From positions 1-33,990 of IMG/VR virus record IMGVR_UViG_3300007606_000015: 33,990 nucleotides of DNA, one strand, 5' to 3'. A model generated the notes under the pieces. It was not told where the DNA came from. It did not search any database and saw nothing but the letters and a program-made list of their open reading frames with translations. This document shows, one piece after another, positions 767-12,399 of this stretch (the first letter of the stretch is position 1; every line of letters starts with the position of its first letter). The translations under genes were made by a program, and so were the position numbers. This DNA comes from a virus. Taxonomy: Duplodnaviria; Caudoviricetes.

Positions 767-2611
767 TCAAGCGGTTTCTGCTTCCACGGCAGGTTTTTCT
801 TCGGCTACGGTTGCCCCCTTGTTTTTGCCCTTACCGATGATTTTGGACATCATGGCAAACAGCATACCCTGCACCTCGCAGTCCCACAAGTGGTTGGCTC
901 GATCCCCGATGGGGAGCCAAATGGGGGTGCCTGCGTTGTTCTTGGTGCGATGTTCGGACTGCATCTGCTTGCGGTACTCGTCCCCAAAGTCCTCGGGGTA
1001 AGTGTGGGCACCAGCCCTCCGCAGGCGGGAAAGGGCGTCTTTAAACACCAAGTTGGAATACAGGAACAGTTTGCAGGACTGGGCACCGACCTGGATTACC
1101 TTTGAGCGAGAGTAGGGACGATAGGCGACTTTGATGCCGTAAGGAGTCTGGACACGCCATGCGAACTCGTTTTGACCAGCACCCTTGGTAGCGTTCCATC
1201 CGTATTTTGAACAAGTACGATAAACGGCATCAGTATTCGGGCCGTCACCCGAGTCCAGAAAGACGAAGAAATTGGATACATCATGCTTGAGTTGGAAAGC
1301 CCGTAGTTCGTCCTCGGTGGCCAAGAACGCCCATTCCTTGCCTCGGCTCTTGCCGTCCGTTGCCCAGCGGCGGACGATGGCGTAGTAGCCGTTGCGTTGC
1401 ACATCGACATTGAGCGAGCGTAGCCAAGCGAACTGCTTGGACTTCTTGTGTTCTTCGGTGATCGGGGCTGGCACCATCTTGCCATCGACCATCGCCGCTT
1501 CGTCCGTCCATTCGTCCGACATCTTGTAACCGCTAGGCAAGATTTCGCCGCCGTCCTCGTCTGGGTTCTCGACCCAAGACTCTGCCAGACGCTTTTGTTT
1601 GAACTCGATGCGAGCCGTCTCATCCCCGTGTTCATCGTATGCACGCTTGGCGTTAATAGCCTCCTCTGCCAAGTCACCCCAGGACAGACCCCATTGGCCG
1701 CACAGCGAGTTCCAATGGAAGCCAACTATGCCCTTCGGTGCCGAAGTGTTCATGGGCACATACGCCGCCTTGAGGTTCATCTCTTGGCGTACGGCGAAGG
1801 AGTCATCGTGCATATGGCCGCACGACTTGCACTTGTATTTGATGCCCTTCTTGACGGCCTCGATGTCCCAGCCGCCACCGCCCTTGGCGTCCTCTGGGTA
1901 AATCAACTGCGTCCACTCGTACGGCTGTTGGGTGTCGCAGGCAAGGCAACGAAACATCCACTCACGGCGGTCGGAGGTGTTCCAGAGGTTCGTGATGTCA
2001 TCGCCTTCCACGCCGCCTTGCGAAATGAACACGGACTTGCCGTTCCATGTGAAAGCGGTGCGGCGGCGTTGGGCTTCACCGAGGTGACCCTTCTTCCACG
2101 ACCACACTTCGTCCCCGCCCAGGAAGCGGATGGAACGGCGTTGGAGATTTCGTTTGTTGTCAGCACCCAGCACCCACATCGTGCAACGCTGGAACTGGTG
2201 CGTGTGCCAGTTGGACTTCTCGGTGTTGCTGATCTTCGACTTTGCCGCAGGGGTCGCTTCCCAGATAGGACGCAGGCGGTTGGCCTGCCAATCCTTGGCG
2301 TTCAAGTCCACATCCTGCAAGAGCAGGGTCGGCCCTGGGGTGCGTGCGGCGATGAAGGCTGACCAGAGTTCAAGCAGGGTGGACTTACCCATCTGAACGG
2401 CACCGAACACCACGATGGTGTGTATCTCTGGGTCAGTCATCGCCCGCAGGACAAACGAAAGGTACGGCGTTGACTCAACACGAAACGCTCCAGGCATCGG
2501 CCCTGGCATATTCTTCACATTGGCTTCCAACCAATCCACGATGTCCCCATCTGGGTCTGGGGCCAGCATCGCACGCAAATGCGACTCGTAGATGTCCGCC
2601 GTCTCGTCCAT
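767..2611 (-). CDS. terL: Terminase large subunit, GpA (lambda) family
   Basis: TPYL motif, Walker A-like GAVQMGKS, Walker B FLGGDEV, CxxC...CxxC zinc motifs, GFHWNSL, nuclease VDVQ and NHLWDCE; start placed at ATG 2611 (TAATG coupling). Confidence 0.95.
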   Translation of the reverse strand: MDETADIYESHLRAMLAPDPDGDIVDWLEANVKNMPGPMPGAFRVESTPYLSFVLRAMTDPEIHTIVVFGAVQMGKSTLLELWSAFIAARTPGPTLLLQDVDLNAKDWQANRLRPIWEATPAAKSKISNTEKSNWHTHQFQRCTMWVLGADNKRNLQRRSIRFLGGDEVWSWKKGHLGEAQRRRTAFTWNGKSVFISQGGVEGDDITNLWNTSDRREWMFRCLACDTQQPYEWTQLIYPEDAKGGGGWDIEAVKKGIKYKCKSCGHMHDDSFAVRQEMNLKAAYVPMNTSAPKGIVGFHWNSLCGQWGLSWGDLAEEAINAKRAYDEHGDETARIEFKQKRLAESWVENPDEDGGEILPSGYKMSDEWTDEAAMVDGKMVPAPITEEHKKSKQFAWLRSLNVDVQRNGYYAIVRRWATDGKSRGKEWAFLATEDELRAFQLKHDVSNFFVFLDSGDGPNTDAVYRTCSKYGWNATKGAGQNEFAWRVQTPYGIKVAYRPYSRSKVIQVGAQSCKLFLYSNLVFKDALSRLRRAGAHTYPEDFGDEYRKQMQSEHRTKNNAGTPIWLPIGDRANHLWDCEVQGMLFAMMSKIIGKGKNKGATVAEEKPAVEAETA

Positions 2612-3480
2612 TACATTCCGCACATTCCTTCACACTCGGATTTGAAATCGAAACCAAGTTGACCAGCATCCTTGTCCGTAAAATCAACTTCATCAAGCGG
2701 CTTGCAGGACTTGTGGAGATACACTTCGATGCGTAAGCCACCAGGGTTCTCATTCTGGAGACGCCTATATGTCCTATCAAACTCCACGGCCTTCTGGAAA
2801 TGCTCTGGGTCTTGTTCCTTCAATCGACGCCATTCATCGTCATCGTGGAATGGGCAATAGTAGCAAGCAGACCGAGGGGGTTCTGGATACCCGTTCTTCT
2901 TCATCCATTCAAGACAATGTGCCCGAGTCATCCGCTTCTCAACCAATGGCCAGCGAGGTTGTTGCCAAGGATTAGACATTAACTTCATGCGTTGCATCTC
3001 GTCATAGGAGATGCCAATCCATGATGTAACTGTAAGTTCTTTTTGACCGTGTTTGATTTTGCAACGGCTACGAATCTCCTTCGTGATCGGTGCAATCTTA
3101 AAGTCAGCCGTACAAGCCCGTCCAAGTGCCGCCTTTACTTCGCCATGTTGAGTAAGTCCAAATACAGGGATGTTTGAACGCAGATAGGTCATTGGCTTGT
3201 CTGAATACTTGCACTTTTCCTTTACACGAATCTTTAAAACACTTTCGGTAAGGCTACCCTTGGTCACTCGGATGACGGGAAAAGGCAACTGCGTCTCAAG
3301 CCAATCCAACCATTTGTAAACGCTGGTCGGCTCGGCTTGCGTGTCGGCAAACACGGCGAAGTCTGGCATGGGGGTAATTTCCCCACGGGCCGCCATCAAC
3401 GCAAGGCATGACGATTGCACGCCAGCACCGAGGTTTAGGACATTGTATTTGGTTTGGGGTGGTGGTTCGAAGTAACTCAT
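2611..3480 (-). CDS. PP-loop adenine nucleotide alpha-hydrolase, PAPS-reductase/DndC-like
   Basis: LNLGAGVQS PP-loop, FADTQAE, RACTADFKI, WIGISYDE, WPL, PPRSACYYCPF and C-terminal CEGMC cysteines. Confidence 0.8.
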   Translation of the reverse strand: MSYFEPPPQTKYNVLNLGAGVQSSCLALMAARGEITPMPDFAVFADTQAEPTSVYKWLDWLETQLPFPVIRVTKGSLTESVLKIRVKEKCKYSDKPMTYLRSNIPVFGLTQHGEVKAALGRACTADFKIAPITKEIRSRCKIKHGQKELTVTSWIGISYDEMQRMKLMSNPWQQPRWPLVEKRMTRAHCLEWMKKNGYPEPPRSACYYCPFHDDDEWRRLKEQDPEHFQKAVEFDRTYRRLQNENPGGLRIEVYLHKSCKPLDEVDFTDKDAGQLGFDFKSECEGMCGM

Positions 3481-4112
3481 TCTTCGGTATCATCGACTTC
3501 TTCCGTGGCGTTGTCAACCTCCGTTGGGTCGATGTCCGTCTGCGGCATCTTGATTTCTTCCTCGGACTCGGCCACCGCTTCGGACACTCGTGAGAGGATA
3601 CGGGTCATCTCCTCGTCAATGGCTTTCAACGCACGCCCAGGATGGTCGGGGTTCGCCCGTGACGCCACCTTGGTGCCCAACTGGGTCAGTTCGTTGCGGA
3701 GGTTCGTCAGAATCTTCCCGAAACGCTCGATGGCCGTCTGCGTGCGGATGAACTCACGGGAGGCGATCTGTCGGGCATGGAGTTCCTTCTCCATCGTGAT
3801 GAGTGTCTTGACCAACTTGTCGTAGGTCGAGTAAGACTTGCTGGCGTCTGGCGAATCGTTGGCAAGGTCATCGAGGTACTTGCGGTGGGCCAGAGCCTTG
3901 AGTTCCCGCTGACGCTCAACTGTCTCGTTGAAGTCCTTGTCTCCCGTGACGGCGGCTTGCGTTCCACCCCGCACCGCCCGTCTCGACATGACCCACGACT
4001 CGGCGGACTCGATGGAGTCGATGGGCATCCCTTGGGTGATGTAGGCGTTGACCAACTGCTTGGAGATGCCAAGCCGTCCAGCCAAGTCGATGGGTCGCAG
4101 TCGTTCGCTCAT
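3477..4112 (-). CDS. terS: Terminase small subunit, Nu1-like
   Basis: N-terminal HTH ending in GMP (DLAGRLGISKQLVNAYITQGMP), helical oligomerisation region, acidic tail, upstream of terL; ATGA overlap at 4109-4112. Confidence 0.8.
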   Translation of the reverse strand: MSERLRPIDLAGRLGISKQLVNAYITQGMPIDSIESAESWVMSRRAVRGGTQAAVTGDKDFNETVERQRELKALAHRKYLDDLANDSPDASKSYSTYDKLVKTLITMEKELHARQIASREFIRTQTAIERFGKILTNLRNELTQLGTKVASRANPDHPGRALKAIDEEMTRILSRVSEAVAESEEEIKMPQTDIDPTEVDNATEEVDDTEE

Positions 4113-4663
4113 TTCTTCTTCTTCAGCCTCGCACAAGCGTAGTCGGACTTCATATACACCGAGGGCGGTAAGCCCAACTTACGCTGGATGGTCTTTACCC
4201 GCAGGCTGATCGCCGCCCGAGTCAAGGAGTGTTCTTTTGCCAAGGCCGTCATGTTCGGCTGGCCAGGCATCCCGATAGCCAAGAAGATGCAAGTCGCCTG
4301 CAACCTGTTCTCGGGGTGCTCGCTGTCGCCCAGCACCGAGACAATCTTGGCGATGATGTCTAACACCTCATCCTTCGTGTAGTTGCGGTCGGTCATGTGC
4401 GTTTCGGGTTCAAGGTAATAGTCCTCGGGTCGATACTCACGCCGTTGGATGGAGTCCACATTGTAGCCTCTCGGCCCATGTTGCATCTTGGTGTCGCTGT
4501 CGTAGCCGTCCTCCTTGTCGGAGTCCACATAACGATAGGCCAGCCCGATGCCGCTGGATGATGGACGCTTTGGGTCAAATCCTGTCTCCGCCAAAACAGC
4601 CTTTTGCTCGGGCGTGCATTTACGCCACCACACGGTATAAACCTGTAACATATCAATTTTCAT
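4109..4663 (-). CDS. HTH protein, sigma-region-4-like C-terminus (candidate transcription regulator)
   Basis: PNMTALAKEHSLTRAAISLRVKTIQRKLGL fits an HTH; coupled to neighbours by ATGA overlaps. Confidence 0.55.
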   Translation of the reverse strand: MKIDMLQVYTVWWRKCTPEQKAVLAETGFDPKRPSSSGIGLAYRYVDSDKEDGYDSDTKMQHGPRGYNVDSIQRREYRPEDYYLEPETHMTDRNYTKDEVLDIIAKIVSVLGDSEHPENRLQATCIFLAIGMPGQPNMTALAKEHSLTRAAISLRVKTIQRKLGLPPSVYMKSDYACARLKKKK

Positions 4664-5296: not shown

Positions 5297-5473
5297 TAAG
5301 GGTCACCCTAATTGGCAAGCCCTAAAAGGCGTAAAGCCAATTAAGGGTTAAACCCTTATTCTATTTACATATGTTATCCCCGAAGGGGATACAGTAAATA
5401 GGTTCAATGCTACTGTGATGGTTACTGTGATGGTTAATGTGGTGGTTATAACAGTTAATACGCCGTCACAGTA
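5297..5473. repeat. AT-rich palindrome and tandem-repeat cluster (candidate cos/terminase-binding or operator region)
   Basis: TAATTGGC/GCCAATTA (5309, 5336), TAAGGGTT-A-AACCCTTA (5342-5358), TATCCCC-GAA-GGGGATA (5375-5391), 12-mer TACTGTGATGGT twice plus a degenerate copy (5411-5446), inverted TCACAGTA (5466-5473). Confidence 0.7.
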
Positions 5474-5659
5474 CCCATTACATTGATTTTGGTCATTTTA
5501 CTTCTGGGTATTCAGCGGGGTCGGAGGGCTAAAGCCCCCCCCTCGATTTTGGGCTATAATAGATTTCTTTGGGGGTATTGAGTGGGGTGCTTATCATTAC
5601 TATTGTTCTCATGTAATGATTAGAAAAATGGCAAAAAACAGCGATTTTTTCATCATTAG

Positions 5660-6030
5660 TGTTGTGCCTTGGTAATGATGGCCTGGTAACGATGGCGATG
5701 GCCTGTGTTGCCTGGTCGTTGTGCCTGGTGGCGTGCCTAGTCTGGGCAGATCGCACAGCACGCCAAGAGAATGGCCTGCTTGCCATTGTGAGGCCACTAT
5801 GGTGGTGGTGGCGATACAGCACCAGCACAGGACGCCAGGACGCCACAGGAGGCCACAGGAGGCCAGGACGCAGGACGCCACCAGGCAAGGCGACAGGACG
5901 CCAGGCAAGGCGATGGCATGGGCAGGCTATAGGAAGGACGCCAGGAGGAGGCCAGACGCCACTCCATAGGGAAGGACGCCACCAGGACGCCAGGACGCCA
6001 CCAGGCGATCACCTGGTCGTTACCTGGTCG
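5660..6030. repeat. GC-rich non-coding repeat block (GGACGCCA / CCWGG)
   Basis: Eight exact GGACGCCA (5830, 5838, 5873, 5896, 5936, 5974, 5985, 5993), three GGAGGCCA, many CCWGG; no credible ORF. Confidence 0.8.
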
Positions 6031-6079
6031 ATGTGTCGCACCCTATAGAAGCACCCCTAAAAATCGTCACAGATTGTTC

Positions 6080-6107
6080 TTGTGCCTGGCGTGGCGATTC
6101 GCACAGT
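6080..6107 (+). promoter_or_regulatory. Putative sigma70-like promoter TTGTGC-N16-CACAGT
   Basis: Upstream of first island gene; same TTG-N3-N16-YAnnnT geometry as 10940, 15248 and 19541; lies within inverted repeat ACAGATT...AATCTGT. Confidence 0.4.
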
Positions 6108-6151
6108 CGAATCTGTTCCCACCACAAAACACCACCAACCACATCACCACA

Positions 6152-6454
6152 ATGATCATCCAAACCATCCACGACATCACCACCATCCAGAACGACATCA
6201 AGGCCATGTCCAAGGCGATCGCATCGCTCAAGAAACATCGTGCCCAGGTCAAGAAGGTGAAGATCGCCATTAACTCTTCCCGCCTTACGGAAGAGCGTGG
6301 CCAGGAATTGCTGTCGTCCTTGCACAGCGAAATCACCAACGATCTTTTCATCATCCAGGATCGTGGCATGGCCTTGGGCCAGGGCGACATTGGCAAAGAC
6401 CACGAAGAGTCTGCTGTGACCATGGCACAATATATCATCACCACCACCAAGTAA
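6152..6454 (+). CDS. Hypothetical (probable early) protein, coiled-coil
   Basis: ATG after C/A-rich leader; 100 aa. Confidence 0.75.
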   Translation: MIIQTIHDITTIQNDIKAMSKAIASLKKHRAQVKKVKIAINSSRLTEERGQELLSSLHSEITNDLFIIQDRGMALGQGDIGKDHEESAVTMAQYIITTTK

Positions 6455-6510
6455 TCCTTGTAAACTTCCCACAACCCATCCACATTCACCAACGCAACCC
6501 AATCACCACC

Positions 6511-6795
6511 ATGACCACCAAGAATCTTACCCCATCGCAATTCATGAAGCAGATCAAAGGCGAACGCATCGCCAAACTCCAGGCCATGCACGACATCATC
6601 CAGGCCAAGGTTGACGCCATGCGTAATCCCATCACCAAGGAGTCGCCTTACAAGCGAACCAACAAGGACGCCAAGGCCATCGCCTGGGACATTCTCATCA
6701 ACGATCTCCTGCTGGTCGCAAACAACATCCACAACGCACAGCATGGTTTTGTCGATGTTGAGGCAATTCGTTCCCAGGTTTCTCGTTCCCTCTAA
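6511..6795 (+). CDS. Hypothetical (probable early) protein
   Basis: CACCACC-ATG leader; 94 aa. Confidence 0.8.
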   Translation: MTTKNLTPSQFMKQIKGERIAKLQAMHDIIQAKVDAMRNPITKESPYKRTNKDAKAIAWDILINDLLLVANNIHNAQHGFVDVEAIRSQVSRSL

Positions 6796-6829
6796 TTTCC
6801 AACGCAACCCAATCACCACCACCACCACC

Positions 6830-7105
6830 ATGACCAACTACCAAATCAACACCCTCGCCAAAACCCTCAAGAAGCACCAGGTGACCGAGACCTGTGCTGT
6901 CCTGGCAGGAGAACATTCTGGGTTCTCGTACATGATCGAAAACCTGGACGCATCGAATCCTGTTCATGCGTTCTTCATCGCCAACGCAGAAATGACGGAG
7001 GAGAAATTCAAAACCTGTTCGATCTGGGGTGCTTTCCTCCGTTCGGGCAACATCACCAAACTCTTGGCCTTCCTGGAGATTCCCGAACGCAACCCATCGC
7101 TCTAA
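6830..7105 (+). CDS. Hypothetical (probable early) protein
   Basis: Start moved to ATG 6830 after (ACC)n leader; 91 aa. Confidence 0.75.
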   Translation: MTNYQINTLAKTLKKHQVTETCAVLAGEHSGFSYMIENLDASNPVHAFFIANAEMTEEKFKTCSIWGAFLRSGNITKLLAFLEIPERNPSL

Positions 7106-7146
7106 TTTTCCACCACCACCACAACCCACCAAGCACCATCACCACC

Positions 7147-7488
7147 ATGATCGTCCTTAATCTCTACGCAAAGCACGAACCAATCTTGGTTCATCGCATC
7201 GCCTTGGCCCAGGCCATCGAGCGAATCCAGGAGGAGATCGAAACCATCGCCATCAAGATCGCCCATGAACAGGCGACCGATTCCGACATCGAACGCCAAG
7301 ACAATCTTGTGAATGTCCACCTGCGGAACGCCACCTATGCTTTCCGCCTTCACCTTGAGGGTTCTGGTTCGAATGTGCGTGCCTACAATTCGGTGCATGA
7401 TCGCACCATCCAAACCCTTGCCATCGATTTCCTGCGAACCATCCAAATGGTCGCCATCGAATGCGAGAAGGCCAACGCCAAGAAGTAA
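7147..7488 (+). CDS. Hypothetical (probable early) protein
   Basis: Leader motif; 113 aa. Confidence 0.8.
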   Translation: MIVLNLYAKHEPILVHRIALAQAIERIQEEIETIAIKIAHEQATDSDIERQDNLVNVHLRNATYAFRLHLEGSGSNVRAYNSVHDRTIQTLAIDFLRTIQMVAIECEKANAKK

Positions 7489-7519
7489 TTTTCCACAACC
7501 ACCAAATCACATCACCACC

Positions 7520-7669
7520 ATGACCAAGAAAAAATCCGCATTGTCCAATTCGCTCAACGAGATTGCTGTGCGTGCCAACAAGAAGGCACACAAGGAGATC
7601 AACGCCAAGCGAAAGAAGAATGGCCTTCCTGCTTTGAAATATAATCCCAATCGGAATTATTGGATTTAA
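7520..7669 (+). CDS. Small basic (probable early) protein
   Basis: ATG 7520 after leader; MTKKKSALS...RNYWI, 49 aa, K/R-rich. Confidence 0.7.
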   Translation: MTKKKSALSNSLNEIAVRANKKAHKEINAKRKKNGLPALKYNPNRNYWI

Positions 7670-7703
7670 CAATTTCCCACCACCACAAAATCAAATCATC
7701 ACC

Positions 7704-7982
7704 ATGACGATCAACGAACAGAAGCAAATCCTGCGAGGCCATGTGTTGGCCTTCCTGGAACATCAACGCCAGGCGACCATCGCCTTGCGTGCCATCAACG
7801 AAATCGGTTTGCTGGAGAACGATGGGAATCCCCTTCCTCATTCCATCCAAGGCGAATCCGTATTGCGTCATTGGACGACCACCGATTCCCTTGGCCTGTC
7901 GCCTGCGTTCGAATCTGGCGAGTTTTCTGATGTCATCGCAGACGCAAACCAGGCGATCAACGCAAATGGTTACATCGTCTAA
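7704..7982 (+). CDS. Hypothetical (probable early) protein
   Basis: Leader motif; 92 aa. Confidence 0.8.
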   Translation: MTINEQKQILRGHVLAFLEHQRQATIALRAINEIGLLENDGNPLPHSIQGESVLRHWTTTDSLGLSPAFESGEFSDVIADANQAINANGYIV

Positions 7983-7992
7983 TTTCACCACC

Positions 7993-8100
7993 ATGCGAAC
8001 CATCACCATCATCACCATCGCCATCGCTTTGGCCTTTGCGATTTACGCATTGGCGTCTGGGCCTGGCATCATCGAGATCATCGACAACCCCAAGTTTTAA
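7993..8100 (+). CDS. Small single-pass membrane peptide
   Basis: MRTITIITIAIALAFAIYALASGPGIIEIIDNPKF, 35 aa, with leader motif. Confidence 0.7.
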   Translation: MRTITIITIAIALAFAIYALASGPGIIEIIDNPKF

Positions 8101-8129
8101 TTTCCCACCACCAACCCACCACCACAAAC

Positions 8130-8888
8130 ATGGCAACACATCGAACCATCAACATCAACCCAGGCATCATCGTCTGCACCGAAAGCATGACTGTCACCAT
8201 CGACCAAATGGCGTTCTTCCAATGGCCTTGGTCTGGCAAAGCATGGCCTGGCAAAACGGATTCGCTCCATTCGGTGCGATTCGCCTTTGAGGAGAATGGC
8301 GAGAAGGACATCACCTTGGTGGACATCACCAATGACGCAGGCCATGACGAGGCCATGATGAATGCGATGGCACAGGACGCCAAGGCCATCCTGGTCGCCT
8401 GCTTACATGGTTGCGATTTTGCTGTGCGTAATCTTTTTGCAGATCGATGGCATTCGTGCCTGGAGAACGCCAAGGACGCAGGCCATCGTGCTGGTGCAGA
8501 TTCCGCAGAATGGATCGCCCAAGAATCCTTTGGTGGTCGCACCAAGGACAAGGAGATCGTGCCCAATGCAAAGCGATTCCTGGCGATGCATGAGGAAGGC
8601 GATCCTGCGTTGTATGATGGTCTGCCATGTTCGCCACTATCTGGCGAATACGCAGGCGATACTACTGCCAAGGACGCAGTTTGCGATGCGTTGAATCTCA
8701 ACGATTCGTCCTATGATGCGTTGCATGATTTCGCCCAGGCCATCGATATGGAAGATTCGCTCGAATCGTTGAAGGATCAAATCTGCTCGTCCTATGAGGA
8801 AGCACATTCTGACGCCATGATGTCTCGCCTGGTCGAGATTGCTCAAGGAATCGTCACCAACGACAACGAGAACAACGCCACCAAGTAA
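8130..8888 (+). CDS. Hypothetical acidic (probable early) protein
   Basis: 252 aa, D/E-rich; leader motif. Confidence 0.8.
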   Translation: MATHRTININPGIIVCTESMTVTIDQMAFFQWPWSGKAWPGKTDSLHSVRFAFEENGEKDITLVDITNDAGHDEAMMNAMAQDAKAILVACLHGCDFAVRNLFADRWHSCLENAKDAGHRAGADSAEWIAQESFGGRTKDKEIVPNAKRFLAMHEEGDPALYDGLPCSPLSGEYAGDTTAKDAVCDALNLNDSSYDALHDFAQAIDMEDSLESLKDQICSSYEEAHSDAMMSRLVEIAQGIVTNDNENNATK

Positions 8889-8898
8889 TTTTTCCACC

Positions 8899-9348
8899 AT
8901 GAAAAAACCCACCACCATGAAAAAAGAAATTAGTCGTTCCGAATTGGTCGCCCGACTCAAGGCCACCAAAGCGAAATTAACGAAAGCGGAAAACTCTTTT
9001 CCGCCATCCACCAAAAGAGATTTGCACGATCTGCAAGAATCTGTCGCCCATGCGGAAAATGATTTGATGAATCATGACAGCAAAAACAAACCCACCACCA
9101 AGGTGGCGTTGGGCGATGTCCAGCGTGCTGTGATTATCCAGACGGCCACCATTGGCGAACAAACATTCGCCTGGTGGTCAGACGATGATCGCTTCCTGGT
9201 CGCCATCGATGGCGTTGGCCTTGGTGCTGATGCGTGCAAAGCATGGTTTAAGGAATGGTTCACCATCCAACCAGGCCAGGAGATTAATGTCCATTCGTTG
9301 AAGCAGGACGCAGGCGAGACATTTGTAGTCCAGATTCGAACCAAGTAA
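8899..9348 (+). CDS. Hypothetical (probable early) protein, possible two-gene fusion
   Basis: Start 8899 or 8917, both CCACC-ATG; internal leader-like relic at 9081-9102. Confidence 0.7.
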   Translation: MKKPTTMKKEISRSELVARLKATKAKLTKAENSFPPSTKRDLHDLQESVAHAENDLMNHDSKNKPTTKVALGDVQRAVIIQTATIGEQTFAWWSDDDRFLVAIDGVGLGADACKAWFKEWFTIQPGQEINVHSLKQDAGETFVVQIRTK

Positions 9349-9359
9349 TTTCCACCACC

Positions 9360-9641
9360 ATGCACGAAATCAAAACCACCAAGGACATCGCTGAAATGTT
9401 GATGTCACAACGAAAAACCAAAAACGAGAAAAGGGGAAAGCACAGTTTCCTCTTTGGCATTACATCGCTTGCGGCGACCAATTACGATCCACAGGATTGG
9501 GTCGATTCGTTGAAGATCGCAAACGACATGATTGATTCCGAATTGCTCCAGGTTAAGGAATCGGGCCAACGCATCACCAAGCGGAGATTCGTCCTAGGTC
9601 TGCTTCTCCTTGGCCTGGATGCCCACAAGCAAAATCGATAA
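9360..9641 (+). CDS. Hypothetical (probable early) protein
   Basis: Leader motif; 93 aa. Confidence 0.7.
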   Translation: MHEIKTTKDIAEMLMSQRKTKNEKRGKHSFLFGITSLAATNYDPQDWVDSLKIANDMIDSELLQVKESGQRITKRRFVLGLLLLGLDAHKQNR

Positions 9642-9645
9642 CACC

Positions 9646-10017
9646 ATGAGCGAACGAAACGAAATTGCCATGACGACCGAACAGGCGACCGAGATCGTTG
9701 ACGGATTCCTTCACCTGGTGCGTGGGCGATCTGCTGTGCGTCTGGATTTCCGAGATTATGGCGAACGAGAGTTTTATCTCCAAGATCGCAACACCATCAG
9801 ACGCCAAACCTTGGCGTTCGATAAGTCCTGGCGAGAAATTAAATGGCGGAACAAGCACGATCTCGCCTGTGCGTTGATTGTGGCGTGCAAACCTTCTCGC
9901 ATCGAATGGAACGCAGAAAAGAAAACCTGGTCGTACTGCGTTGGATTATATCAACCCACCGAGATTCGTTGTGCTGGTGAATCCGTAGTGAAGCAGGCCA
10001 AGCGAATCCTGGGATAA
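9646..10017 (+). CDS. Hypothetical (probable early) protein
   Basis: CACC-ATG at 9646; 123 aa; followed by terminator. Confidence 0.75.
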   Translation: MSERNEIAMTTEQATEIVDGFLHLVRGRSAVRLDFRDYGEREFYLQDRNTIRRQTLAFDKSWREIKWRNKHDLACALIVACKPSRIEWNAEKKTWSYCVGLYQPTEIRCAGESVVKQAKRILG

Positions 10018-10049
10018 CGATCTAACGACAGTCATTAGTCCATGCCAAC

Positions 10050-10082
10050 AGGCCACCATGCGAATGGTGGCCTTTCTGCTTT
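10050..10082 (+). terminator. Intrinsic terminator of the island operon
   Basis: AGGCCACCAT-GCGA-ATGGTGGCCT 10-bp stem, GNRA loop, then TTCTGCTTT. Confidence 0.75.
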
Positions 10083-10089
10083 ACCCATA

Positions 10090-10495
10090 TGCCAACCCAC
10101 AGCACGCACAGCACCGACAACCAGGCGACAACGCCAAGCGATCGCCTGCGTGCCTTCCTGCGTCCTTCTGGCGTCCAGGCCATGCCACGCATCGCATCGC
10201 CTGCTGTCTTGCCTTGTGAGGCCACGCAGACGCCACGAATGGCCTATGGCGTTGCCTATGGCCTTGCCCAATTTGATGGCCTGCGTGCCTCCCAGAACCC
10301 TTTTGATGGTTTCGCCCATGTCCTTGGTCGCATCGAACAATCAAATGGCCTCAAAATCGACTTTAGACGCCATTCCAGCGATCGACCACCAGACGACCAG
10401 GCGACCAAGCCAGACGCCAGGAGAACATGAACAAGCGACCACATGAACCATCGTTCACCATGAACAGACGACCACCATGAACAATCGTTCACCAT
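10090..10495. repeat. Second GC-rich non-coding repeat block
   Basis: Shares words with 5660-6030; CATGAAC at 10426, 10442, 10459, 10476; ATCGTTCACCAT twice. Confidence 0.65.
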
Positions 10496-10499
10496 TTCG

Positions 10500-10800
10500 A
10501 TGGGTTTATAATATGACAAAAATACTCATGATTAAAATCCGAATCATGACCATTTTAATCATGTATTGCCAGGTCATGATTCAAATCCGAGGGGTCGGCA
10601 GGGCCGATTCATTGAGGGGGGGGGAGGGGGTGGGCGGGATTTTCAAAATCTATTATTTCAAAAAAGTTTTTGGCGGCGAATCTCCGTATTTTTGCGTAGG
10701 TTAATCGGGTTAATCTACGCAGGACATTACCGAACGGTAACATAAAGCGTCAAACTTGGCGTTTTTGTGTCAAAAGTTACCGAACGGGAATGTCGTGTTT
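10500..10800. promoter_or_regulatory. Structured non-coding segment: AT-rich direct repeats, G-tracts, operator-like palindromes
   Basis: TCATGATT(A/C)AAATCCGA at 10526 and 10574; G9-A-G5-T-G3-C-G3 at 10616-10638; hairpin 10693-10721; TTACCG-AA-CGG(T/G)AA twice. Confidence 0.55.
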
Positions 10801-10976: not shown

Positions 10977-11444
10977 ATGAACCACATCGCATCATTGGCC
11001 ATGACGCTGGCCGCTATGAACCCTGCTGATCGAGAGAAAGCGGAGATGGTCGTGCTGTCTAACTGTGTAGCCTCCGTGGAAAGCGGGATGGACTACAAGG
11101 CTATTGGTGACGGCGGAAAGGCGGTCGGGGCGTGGCAGATGCACTTGGTTGCTTGGATTACGGCCAATCAATGGCGTACGGCAAACGGCTTGGCGACCAT
11201 CAAGCGTTCGGAATGGAAGCACCCAGAGAACCAGCGTGCGATGGCTATTTCTTATTTGAACTGGTGCAAGGAGCAGTTGCAAAAGAACGGCATCAAGGAG
11301 CCGAGCGTGGAGCAAATCTACATGGCCTACGGCTGGGGCTTCAGCAACTTCAAGGACTCTGGGTTCGACATGGAGAAGGCACCCGCCCACAAGCGTGATG
11401 CCGCCCAGCGGGTCGGGAACATCTTTAAGGAACTTACAAAATGA
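10977..11444 (+). CDS. Lysozyme-like / lytic transglycosylase-fold protein
   Basis: VASVES catalytic Glu motif, AIGDGGKAVGAWQMH, later AYGWG motif. Confidence 0.75.
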   Translation: MNHIASLAMTLAAMNPADREKAEMVVLSNCVASVESGMDYKAIGDGGKAVGAWQMHLVAWITANQWRTANGLATIKRSEWKHPENQRAMAISYLNWCKEQLQKNGIKEPSVEQIYMAYGWGFSNFKDSGFDMEKAPAHKRDAAQRVGNIFKELTK

Positions 11445-11722
11445 TTGACGGCGATATGGATGGATATACAACACTCCTCTACCAACAAAACGAGGAACTT
11501 GAACTTATGCTCCAAACCCAATCAGACGAAATCGAGAAACTTAATGAGAAGGTTAAACTTCTTAAACAAAAACTTTCCATCATTAAGAAATCTGGCGACA
11601 AGATGTATTTATTTATGGAGTCGATGATCGAGGACTCCATGTTCCATGATAAGACTTTTGATAAAGCCAACCAGGTTTGCGGACATTGGCATGAAACAAA
11701 GCAATTTGTTAAGCGGAAATGA
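11441..11722 (+). CDS. Hypothetical coiled-coil protein
   Basis: Coupled ORF, heptad pattern, AT-rich. Confidence 0.7.
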   Translation: MIDGDMDGYTTLLYQQNEELELMLQTQSDEIEKLNEKVKLLKQKLSIIKKSGDKMYLFMESMIEDSMFHDKTFDKANQVCGHWHETKQFVKRK

Positions 11723-12399
11723 AAACCTTGATTTATGAAAATGGCTTACTTGAGCGTAAGGCCGTAGGAATTACCAATGGTGTGTTATCCCTTACGGAAT
11801 GTCCTGCACATGAGGCTGATGAATACATTATCAAGCACCACTATTCGCACAAGGCCACGAATAACCGTTTTTTAAGTTTAAGAGTCAATGAAGGAAAAGA
11901 CGATGGTGGTTATATCCAACTTGGTTACGGCATTAGACCATCAATCAAACACACCATTTCGAAACACATTACAAAGGACAATTATTGTGAGTTTGACCGA
12001 ATGTGGCTATCGGATGCGTTGCCAAAGATGTCGGAAAGCCAAGTGATAGCGTTGTTGCTTTCGTATATCCGACAATGCTACAAAAAAATCAAGTTTATCA
12101 TCACTTACGCAGACAGTACGGCTGGAAATAAAGGAACCATTTACAAGGCGACCAACGCCATCATACTTGAGCCGATTAAAGCCGATCTATATATATTGGC
12201 CAACGGCGAGCGTGTTCATCCTGTAACGATGTGGCACAGGCACAAAACACGGGCTTGGGATAAAATGAAGGAATTGTACCCAGGAATTATAAGGCCGAAG
12301 GGAGTTCAGTTCAAGTTTCTATACATTTTGGATAAAAAAACATTAAGAAATTACACCAAAGAACATAATCAAAAAAATGAAGAACTACCTTGCGATTGA
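11719..12399 (+). CDS. Mom-family (GNAT fold) DNA adenine modification protein
   Basis: IIKHHYSH, EFDRMWLSD, SESQVI, IITYAD..G..GTIYKATN match Mu Mom-like proteins. Confidence 0.8.
   Translation: MKTLIYENGLLERKAVGITNGVLSLTECPAHEADEYIIKHHYSHKATNNRFLSLRVNEGKDDGGYIQLGYGIRPSIKHTISKHITKDNYCEFDRMWLSDALPKMSESQVIALLLSYIRQCYKKIKFIITYADSTAGNKGTIYKATNAIILEPIKADLYILANGERVHPVTMWHRHKTRAWDKMKELYPGIIRPKGVQFKFLYILDKKTLRNYTKEHNQKNEELPCD

Follow-up and report, generated by a model that had tools for sequence, protein, structure and literature searches.

Restriction-site avoidance in first-injected DNA is known from T5/BF23 and from the Autographiviridae (accessible parts of PMC10644984 and PMC12455610). According to those parts, restriction sites act only in the first-step DNA of T5/BF23 (PMC10644984), and Type I sites act on Murciavirus only in early-injected DNA (PMC12455610). 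The discussion of the latter report, as far as it is accessible, describes avoidance of Type I and Type III sites as uncommon in whole-genome phage analyses (PMC12455610). The DNA examined here, called the window (G000), is the whole 33,990-nt stretch of the virus record IMGVR_UViG_3300007606_000015 (Caudoviricetes). It represents most of the genome, about 37 kb, of a small aquatic phage; a contig of 36,895 nt shares its SLT and island proteins. An earlier note on the window had pointed out a 5-kb island with its own sequence vocabulary. We estimate a probability of roughly two in three that this island is an exchangeable, restriction-proofed module of anti-restriction genes, located at the likely cos end of the genome and entering the cell first.

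Word depletion inside the island

The region in question is the following.

5640..10560, + strand: word-purged terminal module, dialect A (word counts, codon shuffle, Markov score, edge profiles)

Between 5640 and 10595 there are only two GCCG/CGGC sites (9143 and 9472) and two AGCC/GGCT sites (5925 and 10408), just as the earlier note had counted by hand. About 59–61 sites are expected for each word after GC adjustment, and 363 occur elsewhere in the window. Other words are depleted as well (observed/expected): ACGG 8/61, GGTA 6/44, AAGT 8/48, CCGC 11/51 and GCTA 1/23, together with the degenerate words GGNNCC (0/14) and ACNCG (1/29). The island harbors 25–27 four-mers per 3 kb at one third of expectation or less, compared with 0–3 in other 3-kb stretches of the window. 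Depletion affects each word along with its reverse complement, which points to selection on double-stranded DNA.

The bias outlasts a synonymous-codon shuffle of the 11 island genes. GCCG occurs twice in these genes against 26.7±4.0 after shuffling, AGCC 0 times against 21.1±3.4, and ACNCG once against 17.3±3.7; distinct 6-mers number 1059 against 1440±16. The non-coding island DNA (1084 nt) contains neither GCCG nor ACGG. The results support the conclusion that the word bias is not a codon or amino-acid artefact.

CCWGG, GGCC, GATC and GAWTC had also been described as enriched. All four are, relative to the rest of the window, yet the excess of GGCC and GATC is a mere by-product. A shuffle barred from the depleted words reproduces GGCC (31 versus 30.4±3.3), GATC (30 versus 36.1±3.4) and CAGG, and a positive role for the enrichment of these three words was rejected. 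A residual excess is left only for CCWGG (35 versus 25.5±2.7) and GAWTC (30 versus 20.3±2.9). The block itself is real, with limits slightly inside those first drawn: a leave-one-out Markov score places the dialect from about 5657 to about 10500.

Many words are missing altogether. The island has no site for 40% of 6-mers, and equal backbone stretches have none for 19–25%; for A..T motifs of the form 3-N6-3 the figures are 35% and 13–21%. A search for a single degenerate consensus uniting the missing words found none. Island windows (5640–10500) also fold more stably than dinucleotide shuffles, with a mean z of -1.55 (n=20) versus -0.46 (n=21), possibly as a by-product of the closed vocabulary.

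Related islands and rival dialects

Related islands were gathered with terS, i8 and SLT alignments and with junction patterns, where i8 is the eighth island gene. The landmarks are as follows.

3477..4136, - strand: terminase small subunit, terS (phrog_57, E 1.6e-6)
10616..10790, no strand assigned: conserved boundary element with a G tract, an inverted repeat at 10693–10721 and two TTACCG-type repeats (alignment)
10977..11444, + strand: SLT transglycosylase, the first backbone gene past the module and the anchor for searches (PF01464)

Four duplicates and two near-duplicates were removed before counting, and the collection comprised 45 islands of at least 1 kb, 43 after de-replication. Thirteen distant loci with an SLT identity of 43% or less were excluded (L038, L041–L043, L090, L091, L093, L095, L101, L102, L116–L118); these show no clear dialect on four indicator words, and the spacing test described below covered only the 43 islands.

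All 43 related islands exhibit a restricted vocabulary with step-like edges. Distinct 6-mers are fewer than in every 2-kb chunk of the island's own backbone in 25/25 islands with enough flank. By four-mer profile the islands fall into dialect A (the window, L033, L063, L065 and L079), L035, B1 (8 islands), B2 (4), B3 (20), B4 (3), L034 and L064. Dialect A is poor in GCCG, ACGG and CCGC and rich in CATC and ACCA, and dialect B is the reverse: most B3 islands have 0.4–4 CATC and about 45–62 GCCG per kb. The four-mer profiles of A and B3 are uncorrelated to weakly anti-correlated.

The edges are sharp. In dialect A the indicator words drop from 51–76 per kb to 3–17 at cos and return to 55–71 about 500 nt before SLT, and dialect B shows the same shape. 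The distance from cos to SLT is 2.9–5.5 kb across loci and the modules measure about 2.4–5 kb, yet the inner edge lies 309–523 nt upstream of SLT in 38/39 loci, just before the G-tract/inverted-repeat element. The inverted-repeat-like boundary element is present in 28/42 loci, and the dialect stops just before it. From cos to the boundary the purge is flat, a step and not a gradient, without decay with distance from the end.

Opposite dialects, of which the earlier note makes no mention, are found on backbones that are 93–96% identical (L015 and L059 versus G001). DNA of one gene family, that of i9, scores as A in the window and as B1 in L070, L080 and L082. The gene content of the islands is highly variable, with 113 open reading frame (ORF) clusters, of which 85 are singletons, and with GC of 33–74% across loci. 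Core genes follow the dialect class: i8 goes with A, GP88 with most B islands and a 488-aa protein with B2.

The palindromes follow another rule. GCGC, CCGG, CGCG, ACGT, CTNAG, GCWGC and GGWCC are among those absent throughout the window, as is typical of Type II avoidance. In the window, island and backbone are missing the same palindromes, with no GCGC, CGCG, CCGG or GGWCC in the island. The L033 island, its ortholog, retains 45 GCGC and 25 CGCG, in line with the L033 backbone. The islands thus share the palindrome habits of their own backbones, indicating that the modules co-evolved with their genomes.

One relative, G007 (L029, L005), is a 32.3-kb contig that spans the genome from the inner boundary round to a point shortly before cos, with the whole module missing.

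Spacing of A and T and Type I sites

The depleted bipartite words have spacers that cluster at 4–8 nt, with the A-half before the T-half, and their A-to-T distances peak at 7–10 nt. For A followed by T at 7–10 nt the ratio is below 1 in 43/43 islands, with a median of 0.76; for T followed by A it is 1.01. The corresponding medians of the backbones are 0.95 and 1.00, and the A-before-T ratio of the island is below that of its own backbone in 26/27 cases. Among the 10 base-pair classes only A before T dips at 7–10 nt in B1 and B3, and no dip is seen for the C..G, A..G and C..T spacings.

The Type I motif of Mme2I has an A-to-T distance of 9 (accessible part of PMC12455610), and the E. coli Type I motifs given in PMC8287963 have distances of 9–10. 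The A..T deficit at 7–10 nt therefore appears to have the geometry of Type I restriction sites. The earlier suggestion that the island is purged of defence recognition sites agrees with this Type I-like signal across the 43 islands. The first-step region of T5 (L139, 1–9100) shows a similar dip, with A..T at 0.84 and 0.88 for 8–9 nt versus 0.97 and 1.00 in the rest. In a search covering the main texts of mostly open-access articles, we found no report of this T5 deficit, none of A..T spacing deficits in general, and none of wholesale dialects or of opposite dialects that can be swapped.

Genome end and packaging

The genome end had been proposed to lie near 5.5 kb. Contig ends of relatives do bracket a conserved 20-nt element there, and a repeat array lies next to it.

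5520..5539, no strand assigned: likely cos, a 20-nt segment and putative 5' cohesive end (contig ends of relatives)
5409..5450, + strand: direct repeats with a 12-nt period on the terS side of cos (seen in the sequence)

The first base of the element is the exact starting point of five contigs, which come from different assemblies and include both dialects (L076, L079, L105, L111 and L114); its last base is the exact end of two others (L009 and G006). A further five contigs on the terS side break off between about 5427 and 5520. All 15 loci displayed have an element of 20 nt, a constant length despite a varying sequence. The segment is kept on both ends, as would result from filling in a 5' overhang. 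We take the lambda and P2 overhangs to be shorter than this 20-nt end. The contig ends thus place the cos ends likely at 5520–5539, upstream of terS. The Logan contigs gave no end signal and no loose ends, being of a kind that cannot show ends; they also showed no doubling of depth over the island in four runs, indicating that there is no long terminal repeat.

The repeats at 5409–5450 have similar counterparts in L033, L070, L082, L086 and L113 and may be cosB-like sites bound by terminase. Their position beside cos, toward terS, fits a packaging start there, by which the island would be packaged last. By the classical lambda rule of last packaged, first out, the island would then be ejected first. 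On one side of the island is the late operon, on the minus strand and reading away from it; on the other is the replication operon. Its genes, 11 on the + strand from cos to the terminator, read inward from the end as the earlier note had proposed. The island is thus likely a terminal block opposite terS that is transcribed inward.

Genes and elements of the island

The earlier note had listed ten co-oriented genes; the actual count is 11, spanning 6152–10017 on the + strand. The single terminator and the repeat blocks on both flanks that it described are present.

5680..6030, no strand assigned: left low-complexity repeat block, built of allowed words (sequence)
6152..6454, + strand: i1, 100 aa, no assigned function, L033 homologue 54% (family scans, comparison)
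6511..6795, + strand: i2, 94 aa, no assigned function, L033 homologue 54% (comparison)
6830..7105, + strand: i3, 91 aa, no assigned function (family scans)
7147..7488, + strand: i4, 113 aa, no assigned function, L033 homologue 58% (comparison)
7520..7669, + strand: i5, 49 aa, basic, with 13 K/R and 2 D/E (composition)
7704..7982, + strand: i6, 92 aa, acidic, with homologues in L033, L065 and distant loci (comparison)
7993..8100, + strand: i7, hydrophobic peptide of 35 aa (ORF)
8130..8888, + strand: i8, 252 aa, core gene of dialect-A islands with an acidic helical C-terminal domain (composition, model, profiles)
8899..9348, + strand: i9, 149 aa, family also in dialect-B islands (46% identity to an L082 protein)
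9360..9641, + strand: i10, 93 aa, no assigned function (family scans)
9646..10017, + strand: i11, 123 aa, conserved among dialect-A islands at 69–81% (comparison)
10050..10073, + strand: intrinsic terminator-like hairpin closing the operon, with a similar hairpin in L017 (hairpin)
10100..10560, no strand assigned: right repeat block, still in dialect (repeats, Markov score)

None of the 11 genes matches PHROGs, Pfam or NCBIfam above the cut-off, and a sigma-70 scan of the island found no promoter. The ORF at 10089–10430 is probably a repeat artefact. The leaders of the island genes (6121–9645) are A/C-rich and lack a Shine-Dalgarno sequence, and most end in CCACC-ATG; such shared leader repeats could aid gene shuffling. 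Two alleles of the segment at about 5608–5740 co-occur in natural samples. Among natural alleles of i1 there is a 9-nt insertion (6157–6193) that is itself composed of allowed words.

Candidate anti-restriction proteins

The i8 protein has 43 D/E and 19 K/R, and its structure model is confident (pLDDT 85). Searches for its fold returned nothing at E<=0.001 in Foldseek, a best Z of 5.6 in VIA and no usable match in Atlas, and the PDB sequence search was empty. Residues 105–245 belong to a wide unnamed family with 401 profile matches, mostly acidic proteins of 110–170 aa, whose median net charge is -0.13 per residue (n=82). Residues 105–252, encoded by window positions 8440–8885, correspond to a widespread acidic domain of about 130 aa (P0023–P0166). 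Among 42 scanned relatives, phrog_4239 adjoins the domain in four, two of which also match phrog_2568 ('ocr-like anti-restriction'); phrog_7247, which also matches the B2 core protein, occurs in one. These Ocr-like fusions are an association with the i8 domain and not proof of DNA mimicry. By charge and family, i8 is a candidate DNA-mimic anti-restriction protein.

GP88 (PF17338) is represented by 31 ORFs and is found in most B islands (e.g. L032:8051–8881). In several T7-like phages (pelagiphages) its homologues sit 0.6–1.9 kb from the start of the record, in HTVC120P upstream of the RNA polymerase; in the mycobacteriophages listed they are 1.8–4.3 kb from the end (right end). GP88 recurs at the genome ends of unrelated phages. 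Three cysteines in it are invariant, and its model has a pLDDT of 65. The fold matches (best Z 5.7, many radical-SAM rows) are below trust level and serve as a lead only; by this modeled fold GP88 may possibly be an S-adenosylmethionine (SAM)-consuming anti-restriction enzyme.

The islands of L034, L035 and L064 carry a very acidic 105-aa protein (L035:4719–5033) of a large unnamed viral family (phrog_9974).

Genome context

The backbone genes identified in the window include a gpA-type terminase, terS, PP-loop, Mom, SLT, RuvC, RecT, exonuclease, helicase, primase and structural genes. Three of them are needed below.

767..2623, - strand: terminase large subunit of the lambda gpA type (PF05876, PF20454, phrog_15)
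2611..3480, - strand: PAPS-reductase-like PP-loop protein, accessory, does not track dialect (phrog_424)
11719..12399, + strand: Mom-family protein, accessory, does not track dialect (PF25680)

No close cultured phage was found, the best matches of the terminase large subunit (terL) listed being only 24–25%. The host search gave only two short contigs of metagenome-assembled genomes (L119 and L120), a weak link; HsdS is present in one of the two, which is uninformative. The PP-loop gene is mobile: it lies between terS and terL in the window, L005 lacks it, L006 has other DNA in its place upstream of terS, and in L036 it lies beside RecT. G007 has methylase-like ORFs at the window's Mom position.

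A model for the island and its alternatives

We propose that the module at the cos end, opposite the terminase genes, enters the cell first. Stripped of short words, it would avoid the variable non-palindromic systems of the host population (Type I, and probably IIG, III or BREX-like), and this protection would last until the synthesis of predicted anti-restriction proteins, the acidic i8 among them. Palindromic Type II sites would be removed genome-wide, and non-palindromic sites of variable specificity only from the DNA exposed before the counter-defence. Because each Type I specificity is a combination of half-sites, the loss of words and A..T spacings would take away many possible sites at once. 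Different alleles of the module would leave different gaps, each invisible to a different subset of host strains, and the rival dialects would be maintained by frequency-dependent selection.

The flat purge with its fixed inner edge suggests an entry pause or a slow, transcription-linked entry. The boundary element at 10616–10790 is a candidate entry-pause signal, origin, operator or exchange junction. That entry pauses or slows at this element, perhaps with host RNA polymerase pulling the DNA in up to the terminator, is a tentative proposal to which we give a little less than an even chance; a mere exchange junction is its main alternative. A broader picture is more doubtful still. It would make these phages a family of small, cos-ended siphoviruses with two-step injection and swappable dialect cassettes, in which the dialects partition the shuffled restriction specificities of the hosts, the host pan-methylome can be read from the missing words, and first-injected DNA can be located in any uncultured phage by an A-N(6–9)-T deficit.

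Several observations weigh against a restriction-proofed, first-entering module. In the window alone the Type I-like signal is modest: the dip is present only at 8 and 9 nt (0.74 and 0.83), with a codon-shuffle z of -3.6 at 8 only and a count of 145 versus 164±6.5 under a word-constrained shuffle, and A before T and T before A are both 0.87 over 7–10 nt. Backbone cells likewise reach |z| of 3.3–3.4. L035 lacks the spacing signal (0.98), and the 43 islands, which fall into about 8 groups of relatives, are not independent. None of the strongest missing words (GCCG, CCGC and CCCG) has an A, so N6-methyladenine (m6A) systems do not account for them and cytosine-based or other systems would be needed. 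The last 5 kb of lambda (0.90, 0.91) and the first 7.6 kb of T7 (0.91, 0.92) show that a value of about 0.9 does not discriminate. Many contigs read through the cos element, which is expected for ligated or replicating DNA. The last-in-first-out order of lambda ejection is disputed in vitro, according to the accessible part of PMC10287942. No window island gene directly matches a known anti-restriction family or fold in the profile, fold and PDB searches.

Restriction avoidance may also operate with ordinary, unpaused entry, the right edge being a module-swap junction and the backbone being guarded by timing or by accessory methylases or Mom. The boundary element is conserved, with shared sequence on its flanks, swaps between close relatives are seen, the backbones show a slight A-before-T deficit of their own, and Mom homologues or (by eye) methylase-like ORFs are present in several relatives. 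We regard this as unlikely: in modules of about 2.4–5 kb the purge would not be expected to hold evenly all the way from cos to the boundary, and genome-wide modification would protect the island too. The variable gene content and GC might instead suggest that the dialects were inherited from foreign donors or arose by a local mutational process, not by current selection. This is improbable, for the window and L033 islands share the palindrome habits of their respective backbones, the i9 family is rewritten in both dialects, and a point-mutation bias would not create an A..T deficit at 7–10 nt. A further suggestion of the earlier note was that the island is kept free of sites modified by the phage's Mom-like or PP-loop enzyme and so stays readable by host polymerase; the window does carry both genes. 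The complete or nearly complete genomes G003–G006 (99–100%) have dialect islands with no Mom match and no PP-loop match, and Mom is found alongside both A and B3 dialects. SASNY, which we take to be the Mu Mom target, occurs at 46.7 per kb in the island versus 56.4, barely a reduction, and SAS is unchanged. The suggestion is thus not supported and ranks as the least probable of those considered.

Two further readings are very improbable. An island nuclease, similar to T5 A1, may destroy host DNA before the remaining genome enters, with the island avoiding its preferred sequences. The core genes do track the dialect class, yet no nuclease fold or family was found, GP88 islands occur in several dialects and the missing words have no single consensus. 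The other, given an equally small chance, is selection on RNA or single-stranded structure or on the translation speed of the early operon. It draws on the A/C-rich leaders before most genes, on the skew of the sense strand, on the extra fold stability of the island windows and on the codon adaptation described for plasmid leading regions (accessible part of PMC13478746). Against it stand the joint depletion of words and their reverse complements, the persistence of the bias after the codon shuffle, and the opposite dialects on near-identical backbones; hairpin avoidance would also treat A..T and T..A equally, which the B islands do not.

If the module is what we propose, Type I-like avoidance is strong but limited to a terminal 2.4–5 kb of a lambda-type phage, where staged entry is unexpected. 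With opposite dialects on near-identical backbones, frequency-dependent coevolution of phage and host could then be tested at the scale of DNA words, and the spacing statistic could be a cheap finder of leading regions and of candidate anti-defence genes (the i8 domain family and GP88) in uncultured phages.

Comparison with known systems

The first-step-transfer region of T5/BF23 resembles the island in being a terminal block with a sharp inner boundary to which the effect of restriction sites is confined (accessible part of PMC10644984), and also in its A..T dip at 8–9 nt, which is weaker in T5. The T5 genome is 121 kb long, with a terminal repeat of 10 kb and the genes A1/A2; the present phage has about 37 kb, a gpA-type terminase and a 20-nt overlap, and none of the 11 island genes gave a PHROG, Pfam or NCBIfam match to A1/A2. 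T5 has at most 5 purged four-mers per 3 kb, compared with the 25–27 of the window island.

The early regions of T7 and Murciavirus are similar in that variable early genes read inward from the end and Type I sensitivity is confined there (accessible part of PMC12455610). They differ in that the published Murciavirus case involves a single motif and a single enzyme. T7 shows no vocabulary restriction, with at most 2 purged four-mers per 3 kb. A T7-type phage has a single-subunit RNA polymerase; none was found among the 58 window ORFs, the window lacking about 2.9 kb of the genome. The left ends of T7-like pelagiphages share GP88 with the B islands.

Cluster A mycobacteriophages likewise share GP88 with the B islands and have inward genes at the end opposite the structural arm. 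The right end of Trooper differs from the islands: its purged four-mers number no more than 4 per 3 kb, and its 6-mer diversity is not lower. Lambda-type cos phages have in common with the window a gpA-family terminase with terS and a likely 5' cohesive end upstream of terS. The right end of lambda carries lysis genes and not an inward early operon, and it is unpurged; the cohesive overlap of lambda is 12 nt, against 20 nt here.

In conjugative plasmids, the leading region is also first-entering DNA under defence pressure and rich in anti-defence genes. The accessible part of PMC13478746 describes no systematic motif depletion in it, unlike the islands. Taken together, the phage works like the T5/BF23 and Autographiviridae cases and is a member of neither.

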